The notes under the pieces: model-generated | Databases searched by the model: none | Seen by the model: only the letters and a program-made list of their open reading frames with translations | Told to the model about the DNA's origin: nothing | Translations under genes and position numbers: made by a program | NCBI GenBank assembly: GCA_014905635.1 | Contig: JABVCE010000016.1 | Coordinates: 372,001-436,000, forward strand | Direction of reading: 5' to 3' | DNA: 64,000 nucleotides | Origin: Scenedesmus sp. PABB004 | Taxonomy: Eukaryota | Shown: positions 40,873-64,000 of the stretch, in pieces | Layout: every line of letters starts with the position of its first letter | Numbering within the stretch: position 1 is the first letter of the stretch

Positions 40873-43800
40873 CTACCAGCCGCGCTGCTGCTGCTGCCCC
40901 GGCGGCGGCTGGCCGTAGCCGCCGTAGCCGCCGCCCTGCGGCGCCTGCTGCTGCGGTCCCGGCGGCGCCGCCTGGCCGTACGGCGCGTAGGGGTTGGGCG
41001 CCGCGGGCTGCTGCTGCGTGTGCGCCGGCGGGGGCTGCTGCTGCCCGTGGTACGCGCCGTGGTAGGGCTGCTGCACCGCGGGGCCGCCGCCGCCGGCGCT
41101 GCCGTACGGCGGGTACGCCGGCGGCGGCTGCGCGTAGCCGCCCGGGGCGGGGCCGCCGTAGCCGCCGCCGCCGCCCGCGTGGTGCGCCGGCGGCGGGGGC
41201 GCGCCGCCGTAGCTCATGTGCGCCGGCGGCTGCGGGCCCGGCGGCGGCGCCGCCGCGTGCGGCGTCTGCAGCGGGTGCGGCGGGTAGGTCGGCCCCGGCG
41301 GCGCCGCGGGCGAGAGGTGCATGTAGGCCATCTGCTGCTGCGCCGCCGCGGCGGCTGCGGCCTTGGCCTCGCGGCCCTCGCGCCGGCGGCGCTCGAGCTC
41401 CTGCTTCAGGTCGTCGCGCTGACGCGGCGGCGGCGCCGGCGGCGGCGGCGGCGGCGGCGTGCGTTGGCCCGCGGGCGCGCAGGCGCTGGGGGCTCTCGCT
41501 GGGGCGGGGCGAGCCGCGCCGCGCGCCGCCCCACCTGCAGCGCGCGCGTGTACGCGTAGTCGCTGCACTGCTGCTGGTGCTGCTTCACCGCCTCCTGCGC
41601 GGCGCGCGCACGCGGCGCGGCGCCGGCCGTGAGCGCGCACCCCCGGGCCGGCGAGCTCGTCGCCGCCGCCGCGGGCGCGCGTGCGCCCCCCGGGCTCTCG
41701 GGTCAAGCCCCAAAACCCCAAAGCCCCTGCGCCCCACCTGCAGGCTCATGTAGAAGCGCAGGCCCTCGCTGAGGTGGTCCAGCACCTCCCGGTACGTCTT
41801 GAGCGTGCCGCGGATGCCGCCCGCCGCCGCCTCGGCGCCCGCGCGCCACGCGGCAACCTCAAATACGGAGCGGAACGCCTGCAGGCGGCGCGGCGCGCGG
41901 CGCAGGCGTGTGTGTGGCAGGGGCAGGCGCGCAGCCGCCCCTCGCCACACCCAAAAAACCCTCCCACCCACACCCACAAACCCTACCACCCACGCGCGCG
42001 CCCACGCGCGCAGCACACCTGTGCGTCGCGTGCAATCGCGCCGAGCAGCTCGTCGTTGCGCGCCACGTTGGCGTCGACGTCGGCGCGCAGCGGGCCGTAC
42101 TTGGCGAGCTCGCGCTCAAACAGCGCGTCGGTCGCGGCGCTGCCGGCGGCCATGAGCTTGGGCAGGATGTTGTCCCGCGCCTTGGCGTCCTTCAACGCCT
42201 CCTCCAGGCCTGCGCGCGCCAGCGGCGGAGCACGCGGTGGCGGCGGGGGCGCGGGCGCGTGAGCTCTGGAGACGGCCCGCCGCGGCGGATGAGCGGCCGG
42301 CCGAGCGGGCGGCGGGCGGCGAGCGACACAGAACGCCACGCGCAGCCGCGTCCGCCGCGCACCCGCGCGCTCGTTGGAGAGCTGGTTGAGGGCCTCCATG
42401 TTGCGCCGCAGGCTCGCGACCACGACCGCGGGGTCGGCGGGGCCCGTCACGACCATCGGCGCCTGCGCACGTGCGCGGCGCGCGCGCGCGCGCGCACGGT
42501 GCGTGCGGCGCTGCGCGCGGGCGGCGGGCGGCGGGCGGCGCGCGGCGGGCCGGCGCGGCGGGCCGGCCGCACCTGCAGGCGCGGCAGCTGCGCCGCCGCG
42601 GCGTCGGGCGTGAGCGCGGCGAACGCGGCCTCGTTGGCGTTGAGGCGCTGAATGACCTTGCCGTCGCTCTCGCCCGCCTGGGCCATCGTGGAGCTGCGCG
42701 GCGCGGGCGCCGCGACGGCGCGCGGCGGCGTCGGGCGCGGACCATCGGGCGCCGCGCGCGCGTGGGCGCTGGCGCGCGGGCGCTGGCACTGCCAGCGGCG
42801 CGGCGCCCCACGCGCGCACCGGTAGCTGTGCAGCTTCTCCCACAGGTGCTTGGCGAGCGTGGCGCTCTGACGGGCGCGCGCGGCGGGGCGCGGTGAGCCG
42901 CCGGGCGCCGCCGCCGGCGCGCGCCGGCCGAGAACCGGCCGCGCACGACGGCGCGCAGCGCCCAGGCCGCCGCGGGCAGCGCGGCGCACCTGCGGCACGC
43001 GCCACTCGTCGCCGTAGGCGCTCCGCGCCGCCGCGTCGGCCTGCGCCTCCTCGTCCAGCGCCGCCTGGCAGGCCGCGAGGTCGGCGTCGACGTGGCGGCG
43101 CAGCTCCCCCATCTCCTGCAGGATCTGCGCGGCGCGCGGCGCGGCACCGGGCGCGGCGTCGGCCGTCACATCGCAGCGCAGCCGGCGGGCGCGCGGGCCG
43201 GCGTGCGCGCAGGCGCACGCGCGGGTCGCGCGGCGCGTGCCTCGCGCAGGTGCTGGGTGCCGCCGATGCTCGACACCTCCTCCATGTCCCGCAGCAACCC
43301 CTCCGGCACGCTCGCCGCGGCGGAGCCGTCGAGGGCCTCAAGCAGGTCGGGCAGCTCCGCCTGGCGGCGCGACGCGCGGCACGGCGCGGCGTGCTATCGT
43401 GGTGCGGGCGCGGCGGTGGCCGCAAGACGAGCGGCGCGGCGGCCGACGCGGCGCGGCGGCCGACGCGGCGCGGCGGCTGCAGGCGCGCGCGCGCGCCTGC
43501 TTGAGCGCGAGGCGCGCCGCGTCGGTGGCGCCGGCGAGCTTGCCGAGCAGCTCGCGGCCGACGCCGTCGACCATGTCGGTGTACTTTGACAGCGCCTTGG
43601 CGCTGCGCCGGCAACACGGCCGGGCGGCCGGGCGGGCGGGCGGGCGGGCGCGTGTGGGGCGTGCGGGCGTGCGAGCGGCCGGGCGGGGCGGGCGAGGGCG
43701 GGGGCGCGGCGCGCCGCACGACAGGCTGCCCGCGCGCCCGCCGCCCGCGTGCTCGCTCGCGGCCGCGGCCGTCGCGCCGACCTGCTGTCCGGGATGAGCC

Positions 43801-47873: not shown

Positions 47874-50702
47874 ATGGGCGCAGCGCGGACGGCGCTGCTG
47901 GCGCTCTGTGTGCTGCAGCTCGCGGCCGCCGGCCTGGCGACAAACTGGGCGGGCGACGGGGACGCCACGCCGGCGGAGGCAGCGGCGACCACCGCGGCCG
48001 CGGCCGTGAAGCCGCCGAGCTCGCTGGTGGTGGAGTACGCGCCCGGGCAGCGCGCCGCGGTGCTGGCGAGCATCCGCGCGCGCGGGTGGCGCGTGCTGCG
48101 CGAGCACCGCGACTTTCAGCGCTTCGTCGTCGCCACGCCGGCGCCCGCGTCGGGCGGCAGCGGCGCGGCCACGGCCGCGGCGGCGGCGGCTGCCGCCACC
48201 GCCGCGCGCGCGCAGGCGGCGGCGATCGCGTCCGCGCCCGGCGTGCTGGGCGTGGAGCCCAACACGGTGCTGTCGATCATCCCCCCAGTGCCCGAGTACC
48301 TGCTCCACTCGGGCTCGGCGCTCGCCGACACGTGCTCAGCCGGCCCGACGCCCCTTAACCCCGACGCTGACCTCGGGCGCACCTCGGAGGGCGTGCCGTA
48401 CGGCCTGGCGATGACCGAGGTGGATGGGCCTGAGATGCGGGCGATCGCGGCGGAGCGCGGCGCCAACGTGATGTGGTGCGTCATCGACACCGGGCTCGAC
48501 ATCACCAACCACGAGTTCAACCCCAACAGTGAGCGCGCGCGGGCAGGGAGGCTGCCGCCCGCGCGGGGCGGCGCGCGGCGCGCCCCGCGGCCGCGTGCGG
48601 CGCCCCTGACCGCCCCGCCGCGCGCGCGCGCGCGCGCGCAGCGACGTCGGGCTGCTCCCCTGGCCTCCCCAACGACAACGCCGCTGAGGACGCAGTCGTT
48701 TGCGACCCCTGGAACAGCGACGCAGTGGGCCACGGTGCGCCGCGCCGCGCCCCTCGCAGCGTGCGCGCGCTTGCCCAACCCTGCGCTGTCCTCACCGCCG
48801 CCGCCGTACCGCCCCGCGCAGGCACGCACACGTCTGGGACGATCGCGGCGCTGCGCAACGGCAAGGGCGTCGTGGGCGTGAGCGACGGCGGCGCGCAGCT
48901 GTACCATTACAACCTGCTGCCCAACGGCAACGGCGCGGGCGACACAGAGGTACGCCGGCGGCGCCCGCCGAGCGCGCGCAGCGGCGCGCGCCGCGCGGCC
49001 GTGCGCGCTGCGCCGGCCCGCCGCCCACGCGCCGCGCGCGCCGCCCGCCAGGTCGCCGCGTGGCAGAGCTGCCTTGCCGAGCTCGACCGCCGCAAGGCCG
49101 CGACCGCCAACCCCAACCTGCGCATGGTCATCTCCATGAGCTACGGCTCCACTGACACGACGACGCTGAACAAGCAGGCGATCGCGCAACTCGGGAAGCG
49201 CTCCGACGTGCTCTGGGTCGCCGCCGCGGGCAACAGCGGCGACGGCACGGTCGGCTTCCCGGCCGCCTATCCCGAGGTCATCAGCGTCGCGTCGGTCGAC
49301 GCGCTCGGCAACGTGTCGGCCTTCTCCACGCGCAACGCGTTTGTCGAGCTCGCCGGCCCCGGCGAGAACGTGCTGTCGACCATTCCGCTCGCGCAGACGC
49401 CGACGAGTGACTACTACCTTAGCCTGCTGAAGGACATGGTCACCGTCAGCCCGCCGCTGCCGGAGCAGGCCGCCGACGCCGAGTTTTTCAACACGCCCCA
49501 GCCCGGCGTCATTGAGGGCGCGGCCAGGAACGAGACGACCGCGCGCGTCGTCGACTGCGGGCTCGGCAACGCGACGTGCGCGGGCGCGGCGGGCGCGATC
49601 TGCCTCATCCAGCGCGGCGGCAGCACGTTCTGCGACAAGGGCCTCAGCTGCCTCGCCGGCGGCGGCATCGGAGTCCTGTTCTACAACCGCGCGGGTGGGC
49701 GGCGCGGCGGCGGGGCGGCGGAGCGGCGGCGGCGCGCCCGCGCCCACGCGCGCCCCCGCCGCCGCCACGCGCCGCGCTCACTCCGCCGCGCCGCGCCGCG
49801 CCCGCAGACCTGCCCGACTGCGAGCGCCTGGACGGCGTGACCGTGGGCACCCCGACCGCGCCGACCTGCGCCGGCGGGCTCGGGGTGCAGTTCCCGCCGA
49901 TGCGCGGCCTCGCGCGCCGCCAGGGCGAGGCCATCGCGGCGGCGCTCGCGCGCGGCGAGCAGGTCACCGCGACGCTGCGCTTCCCTGACGCGCCGCTGCA
50001 GACGGACATCGGCCTCAACTTCCTCAGCGGCACCAGCATGGCGTGAGTGCCCCGCCGCCGGGCGCCGCGCCAGCGGCAGCGCGGCGCGCCCGCCCGCCCG
50101 CCCGCCTGGGGCAACGCGGTCGAGGCTCACCCCCGCGCGCCGCCGCCGCCCCCCGCAGCACGCCGAACGTCGCGGGCGCGCTCGGCCTGGTCTGGAGCGC
50201 GCACCCGGAGTGCAGCGCGGCCGAGGTGCGCGCCGCGGCGGCCGCAACCGCGGCGCTGCCGGCCGGCGCGGGCGACAACGGGTCCGACCCGGCGCGGCCG
50301 CGCACCGACGAGTACGGATACGGCATTGCCAAGGGCTTGGCGATGCACAAATATCTGAACGCCAACCCCTGCACGGCCAAGCAGGCGCTGCGCGTCACGG
50401 TCGCCACGGGCCCCTCCAACGCGGCCCAGCTCGCGCTCGGGTCGGTGGTGCAGCTGCGCACGCGCGTCGTCGACGCGGCGACCGGCTTTGCCGCCGCGGG
50501 GCAGCGCGTGGCGCTCTCGTTCAGCCCGCCCGGGCTGATCCGGTGCAAGGCGACGTCGCTCGTCGTCGCGGCCAAGCCCCCGCCCAGCACGCGCTGCACG
50601 CTGGTCAAGGCCGGCAACCTGACCATCACCGCGACCGTGGCCGCGAGCGCCGGCTCGCAGCGCGCCGTGGCCACCAAGACCCTGCTCATCACGCGCAAGT
50701 GA
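47874..50702 (+). CDS. secreted S8 subtilisin-like serine protease with PA-domain insertion and C-terminal beta-rich domain
   Basis: Signal peptide and prodomain, catalytic triad VIDTG / GHG|THTSGTI / SGTSMA|TP, oxyanion AAAGN, PA insert VDCGLG...ICLIQRGGSTFCDKGLSC, and YGYG. Confidence 0.93.
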
Positions 50703-51326
50703 GCGCTAACGCGGGGGCGCGAATCGGAGGAGGGGCGGCGGCGCCCTTCCCCGCTTCAACGAGCAAGCTTCTGTCAATTGGTGGGGGAACTTTGTGACCC
50801 TGTCGGAGAGCCCTTCTAGCAACCAGCCAAAGCAGGCAGGCAGCACGCCGGGCCTGGGCGGCGCGCATGCACTGATTAGGGTGGCGCGGGCGCGCTGACA
50901 TTGCCAGTCCTTCTTCTTTGGTCGCGCGGGGCGCGGGGCGGTGCGTCGGCGCGCAGTGAGGTAAACCGGCCTGGAACGGCGTCACCAGCAGCGGCGGTCG
51001 CGGACGCGGCTGCGGCGGTCGCGCATTCGGCGCCGCCGGTCGCGCAGCCAGCGGCGTCAGCGGGCCGCCCGCCAGTCGGATGATCGGGCCGGCCGGGCCA
51101 GCAGCGCGGCGGCGGGGCTCAGCGGCGCTTCTGCTCGAGCGGCGCTGGTTGCGCGAGCCGGTCCCACCGCCGCACGCCCGCCAGTTGGCTCGCTCACGGC
51201 ACGTCCCGCCGCAGCCGCGCCGAGCGCCTTCCGACCGGGCGAGCACAGAGCAGTTGGTCGCGCGGCCCCGTCCATGCAGGCCGCCTGAGCGCGCGGCCGG
51301 CCCTGCGTCGTCGCCCCATCGTCGTC

Positions 51327-52763
51327 ATGGCTCGCTCCGGGCGCCTGGCGCGCGCCAGCGGCGCGGCGGCGACAGCGGCGCCGACAGCAGCGCCGACAGC
51401 AGCGCCGCGCAGCGGCCGCGGGCTGGTCGGGCCGCTGGGCGCGGCGGCAGCGCTGGCGCTGGCCGTCGCCGGCGCACCGCTCGCTGCCGGGCAGCTCGAG
51501 CAGGAGGACTGGCTGGAGCCGGCCCGCACCTCGGCGTCGCCGGAGACGCGCGCCGCGAGCGTGGTGACCAACCTCTGGCTCGCCGTGATCGCGGTCACCT
51601 CCTTCATGTTTGCCCTGCTCGGCGGCGTCGTCGCGCTGCAGTGGCCCAACCCGCGTGTGCTCTGCTACAAGACGAGCTACAGCGACGCCCCGAGCGCGCG
51701 CGGGCGGCAATGCGGGAGCCTCTACAACCTCAACCTCGGCTTCGCCGTGCTCTGGCTGTGAGGCGCCGCGCGCGCGCGCGCGCCGCCCGCCGCCCGCCGA
51801 CCCCGCCGCCGCCCGCGCCGCGCGCGCGCTCACGCCGCACCCGCGCCCGCGCGGCGCCGGCAGGCTGGTGCTGGCCATCATGGTCGTCGCGCGCGACGTC
51901 GTGCGCATCATCGTCTGCCTCTCCCTCTGCCTCGTCCATGCGGCCGTCGTCGTCGCGCTGCGCATACGCTTCAAGCGCTTCGGCCGCCCCGAGCGCTACG
52001 CGCCGAGCGCCGCCGAGCTCATGGCGGTGCGGCGCGCGGCGGGCGCGCGGCGGCCCGCGGCGCCCCCGCCTCCGCCGCCGCCGCCTGGCCTCACGACGAC
52101 GCCGCCGCCGCCGCCGCGCAGCAGCAGCAGATGCCGCCCGGCCCGCTGCCAGGCCCGGGCGTCGACTACTATGGCGCCGGGGCGGCGGCGGCGGCGCCGC
52201 CGCGCCAGGCGGCTGTGATGGGTATCCCTATTTATCACATCCCCCTGCAGACGGTCGTCATCGGCGCGCCCGACGGCGCCTCCGCGCGCCAGCAGCAGCA
52301 GCAGCAGCCGCAGCAGCACGGCGGCGGCGCCGCCGCGGCGGCGCCCGGCACGGCGGGCGGCTGGGACGCGGCGGCGGCGGCGGCGTGCGCGCCGCCGTAC
52401 GGCGAGCAGCCGGCGCCGGGCGGCAGCGCCGCGGCCGGCGCGGCGGGGCCCTACCCGGGCTGGGCGGGCGGCGCGCCGGCGTACCCGCCGCAGCAGGCGG
52501 CGGCCGTGGCGCTGCAGCAGCCGCCGCAGCAGCAGGCCTACCCTTACGCTGGCAGCCCCTACCCGCAGCCGCTCGTGGCTGCCGGGCAGCCCGCGGTGGG
52601 CGTGCCCGCGGCGGCGGCCGGCGCCACCGGCGGCGCGGCGCCAGCAGTGGGCGGCGCGGCCGCGGCGGTGGCCGGGGCCCAGCAGGGCGGCGCGGGCGGA
52701 GCGGGCGGCGCGGCGGCCGGCGCCGCGGCGGCGGCGGGCGCGGCGCCGCCGCCGCAGCACTAG
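51327..52763 (+). CDS. hypothetical multi-pass membrane protein with Pro/Tyr/Gln-rich cytosolic tail
   Basis: Three exons with hydrophobic segments LWLAVIAVTSFMFALLGGVVAL, LGFAVLWL|LVLAIMVV and IIVCLSLCLVHAAVVVAL. The tail contains APPY, GPYP, PAYPP, YPYA and SPYP. Confidence 0.7.
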
Positions 52764-53260
52764 GCGCGCGCGCGGGCGAGCAGCGGCGGAGCACTGGGAA
52801 CCGGTGCCACAGCTCGAGGCCAGGCGCGGCGCGTTTGTGTGTGGTGGGCGGCGGCGGCGGCGAACCGGGCGCATCGGCACGAGGCGTCTCGCCGGCGTGC
52901 GCTGCCGGCGTGACGGCGCCGCCGCCCGCGCAGTGCAGCGCGCGAGCGACCGCGGGCTGAGCCCCATCTCCTTCCTTCTTTTGTTCGTGAACGTGCCTTC
53001 GTTCGTACGTCTTGCCGGCGCGCTCGAGCGAGAGCTCGCGGTCGCGATGTTACGCAAGTGCTCTGCCCCCCAGACGCCCCGCCGAGACAGCGACGGCGCC
53101 CGCCCCGCCCGGTCCGCTGCCGCGGCAGCAGCTGCTGCCGCCCCGCCCCGCCCGCCGTCAGCGTGCGCCCGCTGCTGGCCGCGCCCCCACGAGCCCGGCG
53201 GGCTCGCGCGGCCGCGCGGCGGCCGTGTGTGCCGCGCGTCACCCAGGTCGCCGTGGCGCG

Positions 53261-54651
53261 TCACTCGACGACCACGAGGCCGAGGCTGCGCGCGGTGCCC
53301 TCGACCATCTTGCACGCGCTCTCGAGCTGGGTCGCGTTGGTGTCGGGCAGCTTGCGCTTGGCGATCTCCTGCGGGGGCCGGGGCGGCGCGCGCGCGTGGG
53401 CGTGGGCGTGGGCGCGCCCGCGCGGCGGGCCCGGCCCCGCCCCGGACCGGGCCAGCGCGCGCGCACGCAAGGCCGGCCGGCGGACGCTCACCTCGACCTG
53501 CGCCTTCGTGACCTTGCCGACCTTCTCGGTCTTCGGCTTGCCGGAGCCGCTCTCGATGCCTGCGGCGCGCGGGCGCGCGGGCGGGCGAGGCGGCGGCGCG
53601 CGCGGCGGTCAGCGCGCGGGCGCGCGAGCCAGCGGGCTCGTCCGCGGCCGGCGCGGCGGCGCGCAAGGGGCCAGGGCAGCGGGCGGGCGGGCGGGCGGGC
53701 GGTGTCGCGGCGCACCGGCCGCCTTCTTGAGCAGCACCGCGGTCGGCGGCGTCTTGAGGATGAAGGTGAAGCTCCGGTCCTGCAAGCGCCGCGCGCGCGG
53801 GCGCGCAGCGGGCGCGCGCTCAGCGCGGCGCGCGCGGCGCGGGCGGCGCGCGCGCGGGCGGGCGGCGCGCGCGCGGGCGGGCGGCGCGCGCGCGGGCGGG
53901 CGCGCGCGCGCGGGCGGGCGGCGCGCGCGCGCGGGGCGCGGGGCGGGCGCGGGGGCGCGGCGCCGGCGCACGCGGCCGCGCCGCGCCGGCGCCGCGCACC
54001 TCAAACACGGTGATCTCCACCGGCACGACCTCGCCCGCCATCTTGGCGGTCTGCGCGTTGTACTCCTTGCAGAAGGCCATGATGTTCACGCCCTGGGCGG
54101 ACACACAGCGGCGGCGCGCGGCGCGGCGGCGGCGTCGGTACACGGCGTGGCCGCGCGCGCGGCGCGGCCGCCGCGGCCGCTGCGGCCGCTGCGCCACCCG
54201 GCACTGCCTCTGCCTCGCGCAGGGCTCTGCCTCGCTGCCGGCGCTGCTGGCGCGGCCGCGGGCGCCGCCCGCAGCCGCGGGCGGCCGCCGCACCTTGGCG
54301 CCGAGCGCGGGGCCGACCGGCGGGCTGGGGTTGGCCTTGCCCGCCACCAGCTCCAGCTTGATCTTGCCCGTGACTGCGGGCGCGCCGGGGCGCCGGTGGG
54401 CGCGCGAGCGGCGCGGGCCGGGCCGGGCGCCGGCCGGCGACAATTGCGCGCGCCGCCGCCCGCCGCGCCGGCCGCCCCGCGCCCGCGCGGTCCCGCGGCG
54501 CCCCAATCCGATGCGGCGTTCCACCGCGCCGGTCCCCGGGCGCACCCTTGGCGGCCATGGTGCACACCACTCGCCGCGGCGCGCTGCTGCTGCTGCCGAA
54601 GGCCGCGCGCCCGCGGAAGGCGGTGCGGCTGCCCATGCACGAGGCCGCCAT
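53261..54651 (-). CDS. RPL11: plastid 50S ribosomal protein L11
   Basis: Transit peptide [14 protein letters not shown]..., then [39 protein letters not shown]...|[12 protein letters not shown]...[15 protein letters not shown]. Confidence 0.96.
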
Positions 54652-55599
54652 TGCGCTGGCTGCGCGCGCCGGGCGCGCGGGCGGGCTCGCGGGACGCGGC
54701 GTGCGGTGGCGGCCGCCCGGCCTTGTGGCTGGCGGAGCGCGGCGCGGGGGCACGGCGCGAGCGCGCGGGAGGCGGCGGCAACGAGAGTGGGCAAGCAGGG
54801 GAGGGCGCGCGCGCCGCGCGGTGGCCGCCCGGCAGCAACGCGCGAGCCCGAGGGGCGGGCTCCGGCCTCGGGGCCCAGCGCAGCCCTCTCGCGCCGGGGC
54901 GGATCGGCTGGAGCACCTGCCAGCGCGCGGAAAGCGGGCTGCGCGCGCCGCCGAGCTGGCCGCGCACGGGGCCGCCGCCACGTTGCCCGCGGCGCGCGGC
55001 CGGCCACCCGCTCGACCTGCCCTGCTGCCCCAACCCTCTCCCACCCCACCCCGGCCCCGGTGCCCCAGGCGGGCGTGCGCGCCGCCGCGCGTTCAGCGGC
55101 CGTCGCGCCCTCGTTCCGCGCCCGCCCAGCGATCACGCGGTGCGCCGCCGCCGTGGCGGCGCACCGCCCCTGCTGCAACTTGACCGGTCAGCATGCCCAC
55201 CAGCGACAACACCACACACACACCGAGTCAGGCCTGCGCTGCTGCTTCAACCCCCGTCCAGTTCCGCGAAGCGCCCGCCGGCGCTCGAGCGGCCCCCAAG
55301 ACCCAGCTCGCTCCCCGGCCAGCCGGCGCCGCGCCGCCGCAATCATCGCGCAGCCCGCCCGCCGCGCGCCGTCGCGGCGACTACACAGTCGTGGGTTGTA
55401 CAGGCGCCGCTGCCGCCGCCGCAGCGCCGCGCGCCCGGCTGCCGCCGCGCGCCCGGCTGCCGCCGCGTTGCCGCGGCGAGCTGCCGCCGCCGTGGCGCCG
55501 CGCCCGCCGCTGCCGCCACGCCCAGCCGCTGCCGCCGCGTCCAGCTGCGCAGCTGCTCCGGCGGCTGCTCCGCGGCCGCCGCGGCCGCCGCGGCCGCGC

Positions 55600-55809
55600 T
55601 CACGTGCAGATGCAGCGCGTCATCGAGGCGCTCATGAGCCCCAGCAGCAGCAGCACCAGCGTGATCGCGGCGGTGTACATGTCCGAGCCGAAGAGGTCGA
55701 CCAGCTCCTGCCGCCCGCCCGCGCCGCCGCCGCGCTGGCCCGCGCCGCCGTCGCCCTTGCCAGGCGGGGCGCCGCCGCCCGGTGGCTGGTTGGGCGGCAG
55801 GGCGTCCAT
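55600..55809 (-). CDS. small single-TM peptide (about 69 aa, or longer if spliced at 55603)
   Basis: MDALPPNQPPGG...RQELVDLFGSDMYTAAITLVLLLLGLMSASMTRCICT with coding-like GC3. The stop overlaps a GTGAGC donor-like site. Confidence 0.5.
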   Translation of the reverse strand: MDALPPNQPPGGGAPPGKGDGGAGQRGGGAGGRQELVDLFGSDMYTAAITLVLLLLGLMSASMTRCICT

Positions 55810-56517
55810 CGCTGCCGCTGAGGCCGCCGCACGCGCCTGGGAGGTGGGGGCGGGGCGGAGAGGCGTGAGCGGGGAGCGGGGAGGCAGAGATGCGAGCGAG
55901 TGCTGCCCCGCCCCCAATGCCCCCCCGCCCGGCGCCGCCCGGCCCGCGGCGCCCCTCCCCGCCCTCGGCGGCGTCTCAGCGGCGCCGGTTCGCGCGCCGG
56001 GACGCCGCGGCGCTGGCAGCCGGGGCGCTGCGGGGCCGGGAACGCGCCGATGCTGCCGGCGACCGTCGGGCGCACCCCGCGCCCCCCGAGCGCGTCGCGA
56101 CGCCCACAGGCGCTGCGCGCCGCGCCGCCGCTGCTGCCAGCCCTGGCGGGGCCCCGGGGGCTCGCGTGTCCAGCTGCGCCGAGCGTCGCCCCGCCGAGCA
56201 GGCCGCGAGCCCCCCGCCCGTGCGCCGACCTGCCCACCGCCCCCCCCCCCCCCCGCGCTCTCCCAGGCCCGGCCGGCGCGGCAGCAGCGGCGCAGCAGCA
56301 CCCGCGGGCGCACCTCTGGACTCGGCGTGCGCCTCTGGCTGCTGCCGACTGCCTGGAGGGTGTGTGCAGCTCTAGAACGTCTGGCGGCGCCGCGCGGGGC
56401 GGGGGAGGCCAAGGCGGCGCGCGGCGGTGGCGGCAGCGGCGCAGGGGCTCTGCGGGGCGCGGGCGTCTCGGGCGCGTCTCGGGCGCGTTCAAGCTCCGAC
56501 CCTCGCCCTCTCAAACC

Positions 56518-59500
56518 TCAGCCCGCGACCAGCCCGCGCCCCGAGGGCCGCCGCCGCGCGAGCCCGGCGGCCCGCGCGGCGCCGCCGTCGCTCGCGCCGC
56601 CGCCGCCCGCGCCGCCGTCCGTGGCGCCCGCCAGCGCCGCCGCCAGCGCGCCGGCGTCTGCGCCACCGCCGCCGCCGCTGCCGCCGCTGCCCGCCGCTCC
56701 GGGCGCGCGCCCCGCCTCGCTCGGGCGCGCGCTCGCGGCGAGCGCGGCCGCGCAGCGCGCGTCGCCGCCGGGCGCCACGCCCGGGGCCGCCGGCGCGCCG
56801 CCGCCGGGCGTGGGCCCGGGCGCAACCAGCGGCACGCGCGGGTCGCAGAGGCGCTGCACGCCCCGGATGCGATCCAGCACACCGCGCATGCTCGGCCGGC
56901 CGTCGGGGTCGAACGCGGTGCAGTCGCGCACGAGCTCCTGCAGCCCCGCCAGCACGCGCCGCTCGCGCTCGCCTGCGGCGCGCGCGTCGACGCGGCTCAG
57001 CGGCCGCGCCGCCGCCGCCCTTCCAGCCGCGCCGCGCTGCGCGGCGCGCGGCTCACCCGCGGCGTCGGGCACGCTGAGCGGCGGCAGCGCCATCGCGCCC
57101 GGGTCGGCGATCCAGCGCGCGCAGATCTGCATGCCGTCCAGCCCGGCAAACGGCCGCGCGCGCTCGACCATCTCCCACAGCATCACGCCCAGGGAGTAGA
57201 CGTCCGCCTGCGCGCGCGGCGGCGGCGGCGGCACGGCGGCGGCGGCGGCGCGGGCCACGTGGCCCCTCGCGCGCGCGGCGCGTGCCAGCGCGCGCCAGCC
57301 CGCCCTCGCCCACACAGTGTGGCCCGCGCCCGCGCCCCGCTGGCACCCTCCCCTGGCTCGGCGCCCCGGCTCGGCCCACCTTGAGCACGCGCTCGACCGT
57401 CGCGCCCGGCGCCTGCAGGCTCTCGTCCAGCAGCTCGGGCGCGCAGTATGCGATCGTGCCGACCACGCCCGGCGTGAGCGTGCGCGCCGGCGCGCCGCGC
57501 GGCAACGGGCCCGGGCCCGGCGCGCCGCGCGGCGACGCGGGCGCGCCGCGCGGCGACGGCGGCGCGCCGCCGCCGCTCGCCGGCGCCGGCGCCGCGCCGT
57601 CGGCGTCGGCGGGCGGCGGCAGGACGTGGCGGGACTGGCCGAGGTCGCCGACCTTCATGACCATTCCCGCGCCGACAAAGATGTTGGCCGGCTTGACGTC
57701 GCGGTGCAGAATCGCGGGCCGCCGGGTGTGCAGGTGCAGCAGCCCGCGCGCGACGCCACGCATGAGCGGGAGCAGCTTGACCAGGTCCGGCCGCGCCAGC
57801 GCGACCGCCGCCGCGCCGGCGCCGGCTGCGTGCGGCGCGGCCGCGGGCGTGGGCGCGGCGCCGCCGCCGGCTCCGCCGCCGCCGCCAGCTCCGCCGCCGC
57901 CGGCGCTGGCGCGCGAGCCGGGCGCGCTCGCGCGCGCGGGCCGCGCCGCGCGCGGCAGCGGCGACGCGCTGTGATGGAGCAGCGTGTCGAGCGTGCCGCG
58001 GCACCACTCGAGCACAAGGCAGAGGCTGCCGTCGTCCTTTGTCGCGAGGCCGCGCAGGCCGACGAGGTTGTCGTGCGCGCCGGCGGCGAGGTGCAGCTCG
58101 ATCTCGCCCAGCCCGGGCCCCTCCTTGATGGCGACCGGCGCGTCGAGGTGCCGCGCCTCGTACACGCTGCCCTCGGCGCCGCGGCCGATGCGGCGGCCGA
58201 GCGCGAGCGCGCGCCACTCGATGAGCTCGACCGACACCTGCGGCGGACCGCCGCGCCGCAGGCCGCCGCCGCCGACGCCGCCGCCCGCGCCGCCACCCGC
58301 GCCGGCGCTGCTCCACGCGGAGCGGCCGAGGCTGCTCGAGCTGCTCAGCGCGAGGCTGCCCCAGCCGCTCGCGCCGCCGCGCCACGTGAGCGGCGCGCCG
58401 TCAAACGGCAGCGAGCCGTGGCTGAGGTGGCTGGGGAAGGAGGCGAGGCTCCCGGGCGAGTGCACGGCGTAGCCGTCCTCGTGCGCCGCCGCCGAGCCAG
58501 CGCCCACGAGGACCCAGCCCGGCGCGCCCGCGCCGCCGGGCAGGCGCACGGTGAGCGCGCGCGCGCGCGCGCGGGCTGTCCAGCGGCCAGGCCTCGTGCG
58601 GCGGCGGCGCGCCCGCGCCGGGCGGCGGCGGGCCGCAGGCGGGCAGCCCCGGCGGCGCCGCGCGGCGCGCGTCGTGCACGCGCCACGACGGCGAGCGCGG
58701 CGAGCCGCCGCCGCCGTCCCGCCCCGCGCCGGCGGTGGCCAGCTGGTATGCCGACTGCAGCGTGACGACCGGCTGCAGCGGCTGCGGCGGGCGGGCCGCG
58801 CCGCCGCGCTGCTCCGCCCCGCCCGCCGCCGCTGCCTCCGCCGCTGCCGGCGGCTGCGGCTGTGGCTGCGGCTGTTCCGGCAGCACCGCGAGCGCGGTGA
58901 ACGAGACCGAGCCCGCGCGCGCCAGGCCGGGAGGCGCGCTGGCGGTGGCCGCCGCCGCCGCCGCGAGCGCGGCGGTCGAGAACGGCGACGGCAGCTGGCG
59001 GCACTGCCCGCCGGCGTCTGCCCGCCCGTGGCTCGCCTCGGGGCTCGCCCCGGGGCCGCCCGCCGCTGCCTGCTGGCGAGCGGCGCCGTGCACCGCCCCG
59101 GCAATGGATGCCAGCATGTGCTGGAACGGCGCCCGCCAGCCGCCGCCGTCTGTCGAGGCGGTGCGGCGGCGCTGCGCCGCCGCGCCCGGCTCCGCGGGCG
59201 CGCCCGGGCCCGCGGGCGCGGCCGCCGCGCAGGCGGCTGCCGCGTCGGGCGCCCCGCCGTCGCCGGGCTCGCTGCCGCTGCCGCTGCTCCTGCTGAGGCG
59301 CGCGCCGGAGGTCGACCCCGCCGCGGCGACTAGCGAGGTTGCGCGGCTGTCGCCGAGGCTGCTGCCGGCCGTGTCGTCGGTGCTCGCCCAGCCCGGCGGC
59401 GCCGCAGGCGCGGGCGCGCAGCGCTCCTCCGGCTCCAGCGCCTGCCCGTGGCAGCACAGCGACGGCCGCGGCGTGGGGCTGCCGCTGCTGAGCCGCCCGG

Positions 59501-62500
59501 CCTGGGCGGCAAACACGAACGAGTCGGCTGTCGAGCGCTTGCTGCTGCCCGCGCTGCTGCTCCCGCTGCTGGCAAGCGCCGCCGGCGCCGCGGGCGGCTG
59601 CTCCGGCACCGGCGCGCCAGCGCCGCAGCCGCCCCCGGCCCCCGGCCCGGCCGAGCCCCACACCGCCCCGATGCCCGTGCCACGCTCCGCGCTGGGCGCG
59701 GCCGCCAACTCCTGCTTTGCGTGCTTGCCGCTGCCGCCGCCGGCTGTCGCCAGGAGCGCGCCGAGGTCACCAAAGCTGGCCGCCGCCAGCTCGGCGTGGC
59801 GGGCGGGCTGCTCGCCCTCTGGCAGCGAGCTCGCCCGCTGCAGCGCCGCCAGCGCCGGCGGCGGCGCCTGGTCCGCGAGCAGCGCGGTGAAGCAGCCGTG
59901 CTGCGCCTGCTGCTGCGCCTGCCGCTCGCCCACGCCAGCGCCGGGGGAGATGAAGCCGCACCGCTCCTGGGCCGCGCCGAGCCGCGCCGGGCCACCGCTG
60001 CTGGCCGTGCCAAGGCTGCCGCTCGGCGTGCTGCTGAGCCGGCGGCCGGCCAGGAACGCCGCCGCGAGCGCGGCGCTGCCGCCGCCGCCCGCCCCGCCGC
60101 TGCTGGCGCCCCCGCTGCTGCTGCTGCTGCTGCTCGACCGGCGCCACGCGCCGCGCGCGGCGGGCTGGCCCGCCGTCGCCGCCTGCTGCATGTGCAGCAG
60201 CAGGCCGCGCGGGGTCCGAAAGGGGCCGAGCCCAGGCGGGCAGTCCAGCGCAGCGCCGCTGCCGTCGCCGCGGCCCAGCTGCGCCGCCGAGCCAGGTGCG
60301 GGCTGTGGCTGCTGGTGGCTCACCAGCTGGTGCGGCGCCAGGTGCCGCTCGCGCGCCTCCTCCGCCAGCATCTCGCCTCGCACCGGGCTGCCCGCGCCGC
60401 GCAGCACCGCCGCCGCGGCCGCAGCCGCCGCGGGGCTCACGCCGCCGGCGTCGCACTGCGCTGCACGCCGCGCGGGCTCGCCGCCGGCCGGCGCGGGCCG
60501 GCCAGGGCCAGGGCTGGCAGGCTGGCGCTGTGCCCGCGCAGGTGCTGCGACATGAGCTCCACCAGCGACTGCGCCTGCCGCAGCCGCAGCGCCGCGGGGT
60601 CGTTCAGGCTGCTGCGCCTGCGGCGGCGGCGTGGCAGTGCACGTCTCAGCAGGGCCGAGGCGGCGGCGGGGGCGCGGCGCCGCGCGCGCGGCCCAGCCGG
60701 CCCGGCCCCCGGCCCTGGCGCTCAGGCCCACCTCGACGACCGCAGCAGGCCGGCGCGGCCGCTGCTGCCGCTGCGCTTCAGCGAGCGGGCCGCGCCGTCG
60801 GCGCCGGGCTCCAGCCCCAGCTGCATGTTGAGCGCAGCGATGACCAGCGAGTGCTGCGACGGCCCGCCCAGCTGCGCCGCCGCGTCGGCGCCCGGCTCGT
60901 CCCACGCGGCGCCGCCGCCGCCGTCGGCGGGGTACTGGCCGACGCCGATCGCGCCGCCGCCGCCGGCGCCGCCGCCGCCGTGCCCGGGCGGCGCGCCGCC
61001 CGTGAGCAGTGTGAGGAGCAGCGTGAGCCCGCTCTCCCACTGGTCAAAGGTGCGGGGGTCGTCAAACGCGAGGCTGAGGTCGGGGTCGAGCAGCGTGTGC
61101 AGCGTGATGGTCAGCCGGTCCGCGTCGGCGGTCAGCGAGTCGACGTAGTAGAGCAGCACGTACTTGTTCCAGCTCCAACGCAGCGTCGTGAGGTCGACCG
61201 AGAGCTGGAAGTACCGCCACCGCCGCGCGCCGCCGCGGCGCAGGCAGCGCAGCGCGGCCGCCGCCGCGGCCGCGCGCCAGCCGTCGCCCGCGGCGGCGGA
61301 CGCGAGGCTCGCGGCCGCGCTCGGCGCGCGGCGGATCGAGGCCTGGCGGCTGTGCGGCGCGCTGCCGGGCCCGCCCGGCGCCGCGACGCCGCCGCCAAAG
61401 GAGCTGCCGCTCGGCACCGGCGGCGTGAGCACATAGCTGGGCTTGAGCTGCGTCATTTGGTTGGCGGGCGGCGCGCGGCGTGAGCGGGCGCACCGCGCCG
61501 GCGGGCGCCCAGGCCCTGGCGGCGCCGCGGCGCCCCCGGGGCGAGCGCACCCACCAGCCAGGCGCCGCGCAGCAGGGGCTGCAGCTGCTCCGGCACATGC
61601 TCCCCGTGCCCGGCCTCGGGCGGGGCGCCGCCGGCGTCGTCCAAGCAGTCCGCCAGCATCTCACCGAGGTGAGGCGACCTGCGGCGGACGCACGCAGCCC
61701 GGTCGCCCGCCGACGCCGCGCCCGCCCGCACGCACGGCGCGGCGCGGCGCGCCGGGACGCGGCGCTCATACGGATGGCTGGCCCGCGGCGCGCGCGCGCA
61801 CACCTGAACTGCCGCATCACCGCGCGCATGCTCGCCCACGTCGCGACCGCGAGCGCGAGCCAGGCCGCCACGGGCAGCCCCAGCAGCACAAGGCGCGTGG
61901 CGAGGCCCTCGGGCCAGTAGTGCTGCGGCGCAAACAGCCAGAAGACGGGAAAACCCTGCAACCCGCAGCGCGGCGCGGCGGCGTGAGTGCTCGCTCGCGC
62001 ACCGCACCCCGCCGCCGCACCAGCGCGGCCGGCAGACGGGCTGGCAGCCGGCGCGCGCCGGCCGCGCCCACCGGCGGCCGCGCACCGGCAGCACCAGCAG
62101 CAGCGACATCGCGCCCGTGGCGGCCTGCTCCAGGCCCTTGCTGTTGCGCGCCACGGCGCAGTGGACCAGCGCCAGCCACGCGGCGGGCAGGCCCCACAGC
62201 CCCGCGGCCGCGAGGAGGCCGGTGACCGCGGGGCTGCTGCCCAGCGCCGCCAGGCCGGGCCCGCCCGCCGCGTCCGCCGCGCCCGGCGCCGCACGGCGCA
62301 GCGGCACGCCTGGCTGCTCCACGCGCGCGGCCGCGCCCGCCGCGAGAAGCTGGCGCGTCGCCAGCGCCAGGACGAGGCAGTTGGCCGCGTTCACGAGCAC
62401 CACGTGGCAGCCCACGCGCAGGTGGGTCTTGAACCTGCGCGCGTGTGGGCACGAGGCACGGCGCGAGGCGGCCGCTCTCAGCGCGCTGGTGGCGCTGCTC

Positions 62501-63388
62501 CCGCCGGCGACCCGCCCACCCGCCGCTGGCGCGGTTGTCGCGCGGTTGTCGCGCCGCTGCCGCGCCGCTGCCCCGCGCCGCGCGCCTGTTGATGAGGAAA
62601 TAGAGGTGCTGCTTCTCCTCCGCGTGCTTGCGCCGGTAGTCGCACCCCAGGCGCGAGTGCACGCGCCAGCCAAACTGCGCGTGCGTGCGCCACGCGAGCC
62701 ACGCGTGCGCGGCGCCGGCGAGCGCAAAGCCCGCGACGAGGCCGCCGCGCCACGCGGGCGGCCGCGCGTCGATGACCGCCTGTGCGTGTGTGTGTGGGGC
62801 GTTGCACGCGCGGGTGAGGCCAGGGCACGCCGCCAACGCGCTGCCGTCGCACCGCCAGCACCCGGCGCGCGCGCGCACCACGAAGATCAGCCAGAGCGCG
62901 GCCGAGCCGAGCGCGAGCAGCGTGGACACGCGCAGCTGGTAGTCGTTCTCCTCGCGTATGGCGTCGAGCGTGAGGTATGCGAGCGTGAGCTGCGCGACCA
63001 CGGTGGTGACCAACACCTGGCGCTGCTCAGCGCTGCAGAGCCGCCAGGGCGGCCCGGCGCCGCCGCCGCAGTCCGCCTGGGCGTGGGAGTGGGGGGAGGG
63101 GACAAGGGCCGGGCGGTCGGCGCGCGTGCGGGTGCGGCGCTGCCGGCGGCGGCCGTCGCCGACGGTGCAGCAGCAGCGGCGGCGTACTGCCGCGCGCACC
63201 TCGTCGCCGGGTCGCAGCGCCGCGCAGAGCAGGCCCCCCCAGGTGCCAGCAGACGCCAGCACCAGCGTCACCAGCAGCTTGGAGGCAAGCGGCAGGCTTT
63301 GCCACAGCGAGGATGGAGCTGTTTTGCTGGTCGATGCGGCGAACGCGGCGTAGGGAGCGCCATTGCGCAGTTTCGTGCCCTTGGCCAT
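56518..63388 (-). CDS. multi-pass (about 8 TM) membrane protein + PH domain + Raf-like (TKL) kinase
   Basis: TM exons at 63388-61803. PH-like LQPLLRGAWL|LKPSY...WRYFQLSVDLTTLRWSW...LSLAFDDPRTFDQWESGLTLL. Kinase IGRGAEGSVY, VAIK, HRDVKPANI, KVGDLG, GTIAYCAPE, ADVYSLGVMLWE, DPDGRPSM. Two frame discontinuities lie in the linker (about 60445 and 58560). Confidence 0.75.
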
Positions 63389-64000
63389 GGCTGCTCACTC
63401 GAGGGCAGCACGCCGGACCTCGCCGCGCCTCAGGGCGCTGCCGCGGGCTCCCGCGCGCTCGCAGTCGGGGACATCGCGCACGGGCCGGCGCGCAGGGCGC
63501 GGGCGCGCTGGTGGGTTGAAGTCAGTGCGATGATGGACCGGCCGGCGGAGGGGCTGGCGGCGGGCAGGGGTTTGTCGGCGGGGCGCGGCCCCAGGCGCCG
63601 GACGCCGCCGCTGGCTCGGAGGGTGCGGCGCGGCGCCCGGCGCACCGGGTGGCGACCGCTGTCGCGTCTCGTGCTCGTACCCATCAGCCTCTCTCGCGCG
63701 CAGCGCGGCAGGGAGCTCACGGCAGCTGCGCCGGGCGCGGGGCGGCGGCGGGGAAGTGGGCGGTCACGTCTCGCCGCCGCCGCCGCGAGTGAGGCCTCGC
63801 GCCCCTCGCCCGCCAGCCACTCCCGGTCCGCTTTCGGGCGGCCGACAACCACGACCTGCGCAGCTCCAGGCGACGCGCAGCAGCACCGCGACCACCAGAC
63901 CACAGCCACGCTGGTGCTACAGCTGCTGGCGCCGGGCGTGCGAGACCCAGCCGATGGAATGAACTCCTCCTCTCTCGGAGGCCAGCGCCGGGCGCTGGCG

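Follow-up and report, generated by a model that had tools for sequence, protein, structure and literature searches.

We report on a 64,000-nucleotide stretch of the Scenedesmus sp. PABB004 genome (GenBank assembly GCA_014905635.1, contig JABVCE010000016.1, positions 372,001 to 436,000 of the forward strand; hereafter the window, in whose own coordinates all positions are given). The interval 63388..56518 on the minus strand of this window is, as judged from its genomic sequence, one nuclear gene of a very guanine-cytosine (GC)-rich chlorophycean green alga, which starts with an ATG at 63388, ends with a TGA at 56518-56520, and comprises ~1,920 codons after splicing, giving a conceptual product of ~1,920 amino acids (aa). 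By homology, this product is a member of a conserved chlorophyte family in which one polypeptide is predicted to combine an eight-helix membrane domain, a PLC-delta-like PH domain directly after the eighth transmembrane (TM) helix, TM8, a variable disordered linker and a kinase of the TKL group. The best explanation overall, to which we assign a probability of about 0.7, is that of one conserved fused gene acting as a membrane-resident signalling kinase.

The family was recovered by searches of both protein and metagenome data. An exhaustive HMMER search with TM exons 2 and 3 returned 33 proteins at E <= 0.001 (six of them at <= 1e-10), mostly short fragments, and among the 13 matches that were scanned, one, P0034 (944 aa, Bryopsis sp. 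KO-2023), carries the TM part, the PH domain and a full kinase. With a profile constructed from four TM-PH proteins we found ten proteins, eight of which harbor a kinase, namely, P0034, P0038 (956 aa), P0039 (931 aa), P0040 (932 aa), P0041 (922 aa) and P0042 (918 aa), the latter two being paralogues of Caulerpa lentillifera, P0043 of [Myrmecia] bisecta (1118 aa, with the isoform P0047) and P0044 of Symbiochloris irregularis (1256 aa); the two that lack it are the Ostreobium quekettii model P0019 (594 aa) and the fragment P0045. When the modules of the window were compared with the fused proteins separately, each found its counterpart (TM part, E 1e-15 to 4e-20; PH domain, 6e-19 to 2e-23; kinase, 1e-55 to 2e-78). 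The metagenome contig L001 (3.2 kb) encodes the whole fusion as one uninterrupted 931-aa open reading frame (ORF), and in five of 15 metagenome loci (L001, L003, L005, L006 and L011) kinase exons come after TM exons, PH exons or both without a change of strand, the last four loci being intron-bearing with their exons collinear on one strand. The sequence of the other ten loci ends too early to judge the kinase; L008 has 5.06 kb beyond the PH domain without a kinase match, and the PH-kinase spacing in its close relatives L005 and L011 is 5.3-5.6 kb. The original prediction, made from the letters of this stretch alone, had proposed to look for the same TM-PH-kinase order in other chlorophytes, and the order is indeed there, in eight of the ten profile relatives and in these five metagenome loci, which are all those with enough downstream DNA. 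As delimited by these homologues, the fusion family spans Ulvophyceae, Trebouxiophyceae and Chlorophyceae. Database entries name its members hypothetical or "protein kinase domain-containing". Three such "hypothetical proteins" (P0021, P0017 and P0045) are fragments that correspond to TM1-6, to TM4-8 with the beginning of the PH domain, and to the PH core, respectively. They have the look of a single GC-rich algal gene that an intron-blind gene caller has split, and P0021 and P0045 are recorded on contigs of equal length (15,848 nt). A word-based search with the kinase exon for proteins of similar length gave three matches only, with low-complexity words crowding the search, and is uninformative on orthology. 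We also dropped the protein P0012 (1906 aa, 11 stretches on query positions 72-104), since it matches only a translated intron or low-complexity part of the query.

The GC content of the gene region is 0.76-0.85 (in 1-kb windows), and 78 ORFs of at least 50 aa occur in 9 kb, with long open frames in all six frames. Because such an extreme composition produces long stop-free ORFs everywhere, ORF length is worthless as coding evidence here. The same composition extends over positions 50000-64000 (GC 0.74-0.85, with runs of 300-900 codons free of stops in every frame of either strand), where the GC contrast between codon positions (third position 0.9-1.0) is workable as coding evidence. The third-position periodicity is unbroken on the minus strand from ~63330 to ~56700 with few frame changes, and the family signal in a Pfam scan of the ORFs is confined to this strand. 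Within the TM-PH part, each frame change is accompanied by a GTG(C/G/T)G-type donor and a (Y)nCAG acceptor with matching phase, and the ATG at 63388 has an in-frame stop two codons upstream. We take the interval to be one gene because the codon-position signal is continuous on one strand and the splice junctions are reproduced by homologues, because a conserved motif spans the junction of exons 7 and 8 and bypasses the stop at 60722, and because the minus-strand frame of the kinase (f1) has no ATG upstream of the kinase domain. The kinase is assigned to this same gene because fusion is the rule in the relatives and the 2-kb linker keeps its third-position GC in one frame.

The gene model was compared throughout with the Tetradesmus obliquus protein P0001 (OEZ86_003781, 624 aa), which reads across five junctions of the TM part and is 45.8% identical to the window protein over 402 aa of that part and 78% identical over the PH core. 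Exon 1 (63200..63388; this and all following exons and introns are on the minus strand) encodes the N-terminal, predicted cytosolic tail, the conserved motif LWQSLPLASKLL, which aligns with FWxSLPxxSKLF of all homologues, and TM1, and it ends at a GTGCGC donor at 63199. Exon 2 (62879..63076), preceded by a polypyrimidine tract and a CAG acceptor, encodes the putative lumenal or extracellular loop 1 with two Cys residues, TM2, the motif DAIREEN (62965-62945) and TM3, and its junction LWLIFV/AVID is matched by P0001 and others. Exon 3 encodes TM4 and a conserved basic loop of predicted cytosolic location (QFGWRVHS..GCDYRRKH..YFLINR at 62677-62585), and has two candidate donors, a GC donor (exon 62586..62779, intron from 62585) and a GT donor (exon 62520..62779, intron from 62519) that adds 22 low-complexity residues. 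Since all eight aligned homologues read ..R|F(K/R/T)TL.. at this place without the insert, a GC-AG intron is favoured after exon 3, and two isoforms are possible; the segment 62519-62585 would accordingly belong to a probable GC-AG intron with the donor AG/GCGCGC, the alternative GT donor lying 66 nt downstream and in frame. Exon 4 (62086..62434), delimited by the coding signal of frame f2 and by the alignment of homologues, encodes TM5, a low-complexity loop, TM6, the motif CAVARNS (62160-62140) and the start of TM7, and exon 5 (61804..61955), with its coding signal in frame f0 and its junctions matched by P0001, encodes the rest of TM7, TM8 and the motif MRAVMRQF (61829-61806).

A juxtamembrane segment and the first PH strand, beta-1 (EQLQPLLRGAWL, 61590-61555), are encoded by exon 6 (61555..61678); this strand aligns with NPDLLPLLKGAWL of the homologues and with a stretch of PLC-delta1. 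Exon 7 (60732..61447) contributes a low-complexity insert of ~65 aa in the beta1-beta2 loop, the PH core (RRWRYFQLS..TLRWSWNKY..FDQWESGLTLLLTLL at 61225-61004) and the start of the linker. Intron 7 (60618..60731), bounded by a GTGGGC donor and a CAG acceptor, takes out an in-frame TGA stop (60722-60724), and its splice product SRRSSLNDP aligns across the junction with the conserved motif (K/S)RRS(T/S)..DP(EN) of P0043 and P0044. Exon 8 (60441..60617; f1 coding signal, aligned to the trebouxiophyte orthologues) encodes the linker motif RSSLNDPAALRLRQAQSLVELMSQHL, and is tentatively separated by a 53-nt intron (60440-60388) from the linker exon (58574..60387), which is low-complexity, rich in A, G, P and S, lies in frame f0 (open frame 61043..58401), has a third-position GC of 0.90-1.00 throughout and matches no Pfam family. 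The low-complexity linker amounts to ~850 aa in the gene model, compared with ~170 aa in Bryopsidales. At the dinucleotide repeat (CG)9 (58555..58573) the coding signal passes from f0 to f1, the frame of the kinase exon (57380..58554), which encodes a Ser/Gly-rich pre-kinase segment and kinase subdomains I-VIII with two low-complexity inserts. An intron in phase 0 (57208..57379, GTGGGC...CAG) interrupts the kinase domain, and its splice product ERVLK/ADVYSLGVMLWE matches (R/K)xLKADVYSFGV..WE of all orthologues; the last exon (56518..57207) holds subdomains IX-XI (DVYSLG at 57204, DPDGRPS at 56910), a Gly/Ala-rich tail and the TGA. The next gene downstream (53820-55187, same strand) is intron-split and encodes a ribosomal protein L11 of organellar type (Pfam Ribosomal_L11_N, 65.8 bits). 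This model bears out the earlier claim that about eight hydrophobic helices are joined by splicing to a PH-like module (seven hydropathy peaks plus one weak helix, with the five junctions matched by P0001). The claim that all parts follow on one strand without an intergenic gap held for the coding signal, which is continuous, but only in part for the frame, where intron 7 bypasses a stop and f0 and f1 are out of register; likewise, the low-complexity linker is present, but is longer than the ~700 aa first estimated.

The membrane domain of the window protein shows seven clear peaks of Kyte-Doolittle hydropathy, and a weaker eighth helix, GLVAGFALAGAAHAWLAW, aligns with helix 4 of an AlphaFold model of the orthologue P0019, which was computed from a 10-sequence alignment and has eight long helices (mean predicted local distance difference test, pLDDT, 59; mostly 70-90 in the TM part). 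The first four helices are covered in orthologues by the Pfam family DUF7789 (PF25044), which passes its 25-bit cut-off in two of the eight proteins P0038-P0045, namely, P0039 (26.5) and P0044 (27.3), stays below it in P0042 (24.9), P0040 (21.9), P0041 (20.8) and P0043 (16.5 bits), and finds no match in P0038, P0045, P0034 and P0019, in the ORFs of the window (E <= 0.1) or in P0001 (E <= 10). The window protein is thus a candidate member of DUF7789, by homology of its TM part to these proteins; a match of P0001 to DUF4006 (Pfam, E 0.19) was rejected as chance. The original prediction had likened the TM part to the fungal UPF0658 Golgi membrane family, whereas the family that Pfam recovered is DUF7789. 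The module also occurs by itself, as in the TM-only relative P0032, and the neighbours in the ESM Atlas are DUF7789 clusters of ~285-330 aa from Chordata, Microsporidia and Mucoromycota (scores 0.89-0.90, to be read as leads only). Foldseek found no match for the TM part of the P0019 model, and VIA-align returned only generic helical bundles (talin rod with Z 15.4, uroplakin, PRPH2, LCI1 and TTYH3), a range that is uninformative for helical proteins. The TM domain, as searched inside the P0019 model, appears to have no specific solved fold among the matches. Each of its halves aligns to four-helix bundles by VIA-align, and an hhalign comparison of the two gave a probability of 1.5% (E 0.033, 18 columns), so that the 2x4 arrangement can be recognized solely in the model, where the helices fall into two halves of four.

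The residues that are invariant in this domain are SLP before TM1, EN after TM2, and FGWR..S..ACD.R.K.A after TM4. They should lie on the predicted cytosolic face, because the number of helices is even, the kinase is cytosolic and the TM4-TM5 loop holds 12 K/R residues. The extracytosolic loops are short, and P0043 and P0044 have no loop 1 at all. These features bear on the alternative that the protein is fused, but its TM domain is a passive anchor in the Golgi or another endomembrane and its PH domain serves targeting or auto-inhibition, so that the whole would be a tethered MAP3K-type kinase rather than a receptor. We regard this alternative as a serious possibility, somewhat short of even odds and nearly as likely as the mechanism that we favour below. 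The short loops, the probable cytosolic exposure of the invariant residues and the resemblance of the TM halves to generic four-helix bundles only are all as one would expect of an anchor, and a passage of PMC10406608 glosses fungal UPF0658, a possible equivalent of DUF7789, as a Golgi apparatus membrane protein. On the other hand, the conserved polar and charged residues in or beside the bundle (EN, FGWR, CD.R.K) exceed what an anchor needs, and the module has been retained across three chlorophyte classes.

The PH module of the window (61590-61004), which lies 25-40 residues after TM8, is 45-78% identical to those of seven homologues (E 1e-19 to 2e-37; 49% to P0019). In the P0019 model this part forms seven strands (375-438) and a C-terminal helix (442-460), and the Foldseek list obtained with it is filled by PH domains with those of PLC-gamma2 and PLC-delta1 on top (template-modelling score by target 0.65), the PH domains of ELMO1, GRK2 and Akt being also among the fold matches. 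VIA-align gave a Z of 11.5 to PLC-delta1 (PDB 1mai), with a root-mean-square deviation of 2.6 over 96 residues at 28% identity, and a profile of nine PH sequences searched against the PDB had PLC-delta1 1mai as its sole match (E 0.0089). Seven of the nine PH segments match Pfam PH_12 weakly (best E 2.3e-4; 18.9 bits for member 1). The HMMER alignment pairs LLKGAWLxK....(K/R)RFF with a stretch of PLC-delta1, and the window has WLLK and RRWRYF. The aligned stretch keeps the Lys of beta1 and an R-x-R in beta2, which align with the region of K30 and R40 in PLC-delta1 that we take to bind inositol phosphate.

The kinase was recognized by Pfam in two frames of the window: 57053-59329, with Pkinase at 54.5 bits (cut-off 31.7) and PK_Tyr_Ser-Thr at 42.4 bits (cut-off 23.1), and 56518-57654, the frame of the last exon with the C-lobe, with PK_Tyr_Ser-Thr at 23.1 bits. 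Its motifs are VSVELIEW (58237), GRGAEG (58186-58169), VAIK (58135), HRD (57706), DLG (57646-57638) and APE (57445), all on the minus strand, and the catalytic set is kept, including the GRGAEG loop, the Lys of VAIK, the alphaC Glu (EIELH), HRDVKPAN with the catalytic Asn, and CAPE, making it a kinase of the arginine-aspartate (RD) type. The domain is 38-42% identical to the kinases of five fused homologues (E 1e-55 to 2e-78). The nearest solved kinases to that of P0034 are ZAK/MLT, DLK and CTR1 (E 3e-29 to 2e-21), and the best PDB matches of the window's own kinase exon are B-Raf and TAK1 (E 5e-10). By its nearest solved sequences, the kinase would belong to the TKL group and be of the MLK/Raf-like MAP3K type, for which "Raf-like" is an acceptable, if less exact, description; no CRIB, leucine-zipper, SAM or Ras-binding domain was found. 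Several statements of the original prediction are corroborated by these comparisons, namely, that the kinase is a complete RD kinase with a GRGAEG loop, its Pfam matches being above the gathering score; that it is Raf-like; that the PH domain is of PLC/ELMO type, with PLC-delta1 and PLC-gamma at the top of the fold matches; and that the TM module also stands alone, as it does in other eukaryotes. The proposed duplication of 2x4 helices, in contrast, left no detectable sequence similarity. The suggested check of the three modules by hidden Markov models and AlphaFold succeeded for the kinase (Pfam) and for the eight helices and the PH fold (in the P0019 model), but yielded no DUF7789 or PH_12 match above cut-off in the window itself.

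A number of observations tell against reading the interval as one intact gene of this kind. The gene model is a proposal from genomic sequence; the Pfam scan of the window ORFs at E <= 0.1 gave nothing beyond Pkinase and PK_Tyr_Ser-Thr, leaving the TM exons without a match; all PH segments stay below the 27-bit gathering score of PH_12; the PH part of the P0019 model has a pLDDT of only 43-70, and its Foldseek E for PH is only 3e-3 to 4e-3; and the two closest TM-PH models, P0001 (624 aa) and P0019 (594 aa), end before a kinase. These last two models appear to have been cut short or mis-spliced in annotation and not to represent forms without a kinase, and P0001 in particular is probably truncated, since it stops exactly at the position of the exon 7 donor. 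A further peculiarity of P0001 is the absence of the beta2 strand (RRFFQ), which every other member has.

Two further points of this kind each support a specific alternative. In the kinase, DLG replaces DFG with the Asp retained, a change that the original prediction had correctly seen but that is peculiar to this species, as all six aligned kinase-bearing homologues have DFG. It is therefore conceivable that the protein is a pseudokinase or scaffold in this species, its Mg-binding DFG being altered and three low-complexity inserts (~25-55 aa) interrupting the domain behind the hinge, at the activation loop and within the C-lobe. We consider this quite improbable, since the domain retains the Asp of D-x-G, the Lys of VAIK, the alphaC Glu, HRD, the Asn of the catalytic loop and APE, Leu for Phe is a conservative change, and the inserts are confined to loops. 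Some active kinases carry DLG.

The second point is the frame switch between the linker (f0) and the kinase (f1). A maximum-likelihood codon-position model places the change of coding signal at 58576, next to the (CG)9 repeat at 58555-58573. As assembled, f0 meets a stop at 58401, before the kinase, so that no frame is open across 58.6 kb, and among all GT/GC..AG pairs between 58950 and 58380 there is no well-signalled canonical intron that would link f0 to f1. The best such pair (GTGGCG at 58686 and CTCCTTCCCCAG at 58431) was rejected because it would remove 256 nt with a clear coding signal. By frame arithmetic, one extra CG unit would bring f0 and f1 into register; most likely, then, the break is a 2-nt repeat-length error of the assembly, and a recent real frameshift is the less likely reading of the same sequence. 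The 18-base pattern occurs at only two other sites of the window (42478-42495 and 48620-48639; 0.17 expected by chance), which may point to repeat-length errors as a recurrent kind of assembly fault in this GC-rich genome. If the frame change were real, the fusion would be broken in this organism: the TM-PH-linker protein would end at 58401, and the kinase exons would be either a gene of their own, whose 5' exon has gone unseen, or the remnant of one in decay. That the assembled sequence has no open frame here, that the switch sits inside a slippage-prone repeat, and that the T. obliquus and Ostreobium models have no kinase are in line with such a break. Nevertheless, we hold it to be improbable, because the kinase exons retain a strong codon-position signal, all catalytic motifs and the conserved phase-0 intron, an ATG ahead of the kinase is absent from f1, the T. 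obliquus model ends at a donor that the trebouxiophyte orthologues read across and hence looks annotation-truncated, and all eight full-length relatives are fused.

Returning to the fused membrane-resident kinase, its likeliest mode of action can be outlined as follows. Both termini would be cytosolic, given the even number of helices and the K/R-rich TM4-TM5 loop, and through the membrane domain, PH domain and kinase alike would be kept on the cytosolic side of a single membrane. The reach of the PH domain would thereby be limited to the cytosolic leaflet of that same membrane or to the conserved basic loops of the bundle, while the disordered linker would let the kinase roam. Phosphoinositide binding by the PH domain, the state of the DUF7789 bundle, or both would determine the activity, reach or orientation of the kinase, which would in turn phosphorylate downstream targets, MAP2K-like or other, on Ser/Thr. 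The words "receptor" and "lipid-sensing" of the original prediction, however, go beyond these data: the extracytosolic loops are short, and the conserved residues lie on the predicted cytosolic face; receptor, ligand and lipid-sensing roles are at present conjectural. We consider rather unlikely the bolder proposal that the DUF7789 bundle senses membrane lipid or membrane state and gates the MAP3K-type kinase through the PLC-delta-like PH domain, which would make the family a class of receptor kinases that arose in green algae independently of plant receptor-like kinases (RLKs) and of fusions of G-protein-coupled receptors (GPCRs) with TKL kinases. If it were true, the fusion would serve as a "Rosetta stone" and provide a first clue to the function of the stand-alone DUF7789/UPF0658-like proteins of fungi, microsporidia and chordates, a clue that would point to signalling linked to phosphoinositides at an endomembrane.

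Green algae have very few single-pass receptor kinases of the land-plant type, and the coupling of membrane to kinase in them is poorly known. A family in which a Raf/MLK-like kinase is permanently joined to a polytopic membrane domain and a PLC-type PH domain offers a testable entry to algal membrane-to-kinase signalling, and the domain fusion is a functional hint for the pan-eukaryotic DUF7789. It is also of use for annotation, as the closest public models (Tetradesmus and Ostreobium) appear truncated, and extreme GC content together with repeat-length errors hides such genes. In the main texts of the literature searched there was no description of a DUF7789-PH-kinase protein, and the text of PMC10463195, on transmembrane kinases in protists, contains none of the terms sought for multi-pass kinases or green algae. 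The gene is thus a new member of an unnamed and unstudied chlorophyte family, but the fusion of a polytopic TM domain with a TKL kinase is itself already known; on sequence grounds the architecture appears solid and conserved, whereas no new principle emerges and the function is a prediction.

Passages of earlier papers describe such fusions from oomycetes, amoebozoans and choanoflagellates. In oomycetes, GPCR-TKL "bigrams" join a polytopic TM domain to a TKL kinase (PMC6033456), TKL kinases of P. infestans have one to nine TM segments (PMC3019232), and acanthoecid choanoflagellates have GPCR-TKL/K proteins, of which, according to the authors, none is functionally characterised and the fusion arose repeatedly (PMC12716839); an eLife passage reports that 7TM-kinase fusions were absent outside oomycetes and amoebozoans before those of choanoflagellates. 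In view of these passages, the earlier designation as a candidate "new receptor class" was overstated. As far as these passages describe them, the GPCR-TKL proteins have in common with the algal family an N-terminal polytopic membrane domain, a C-terminal cytosolic TKL kinase and the want of a functional characterisation. However, the algal membrane domain has eight helices and is assigned by homology to DUF7789 instead of being a 7TM GPCR, a PH domain is intercalated, and the lineage is Chlorophyta; Pfam scans of the window ORFs and of the relatives found no GPCR family, so that the likeness is one of architecture and logic only. Compared with the stand-alone DUF7789 proteins, which have the first four helices in common with P0039 and P0044, the algal module adds four helices, the PH domain and the kinase.

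The algal PH domain and that of PLC-delta1 have in common the motif PDL..LLKG..L.K....(K/R)RF(F/Y).L..D..T..W, but the basic set that binds inositol phosphate is only partly visible in the former, and the beta1-beta2 loop of the window protein contains an insert of ~65 aa. The MLK/Raf-like MAP3Ks, such as ZAK/MLT (MAP3K20), DLK (MAP3K12), CTR1, B-Raf and TAK1, are soluble and recruited non-covalently, whereas the tether of the algal kinase is covalent; CTR1 acts at the membrane, bound to the polytopic ethylene receptor. Akt/PKB and GRK2 have a PH domain and a kinase in one chain, as does the algal protein, but they are soluble AGC kinases in which the PH domain serves reversible membrane recruitment; since the algal protein is already embedded in the membrane, its PH domain must act in cis, in orientation, auto-inhibition or lipid read-out. 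Finally, the RLK/Pelle kinases of plants have a signal peptide, an ectodomain and a single TM segment, whereas the window protein has about eight TM helices, no ectodomain and no Pfam family of the ectodomain kind.

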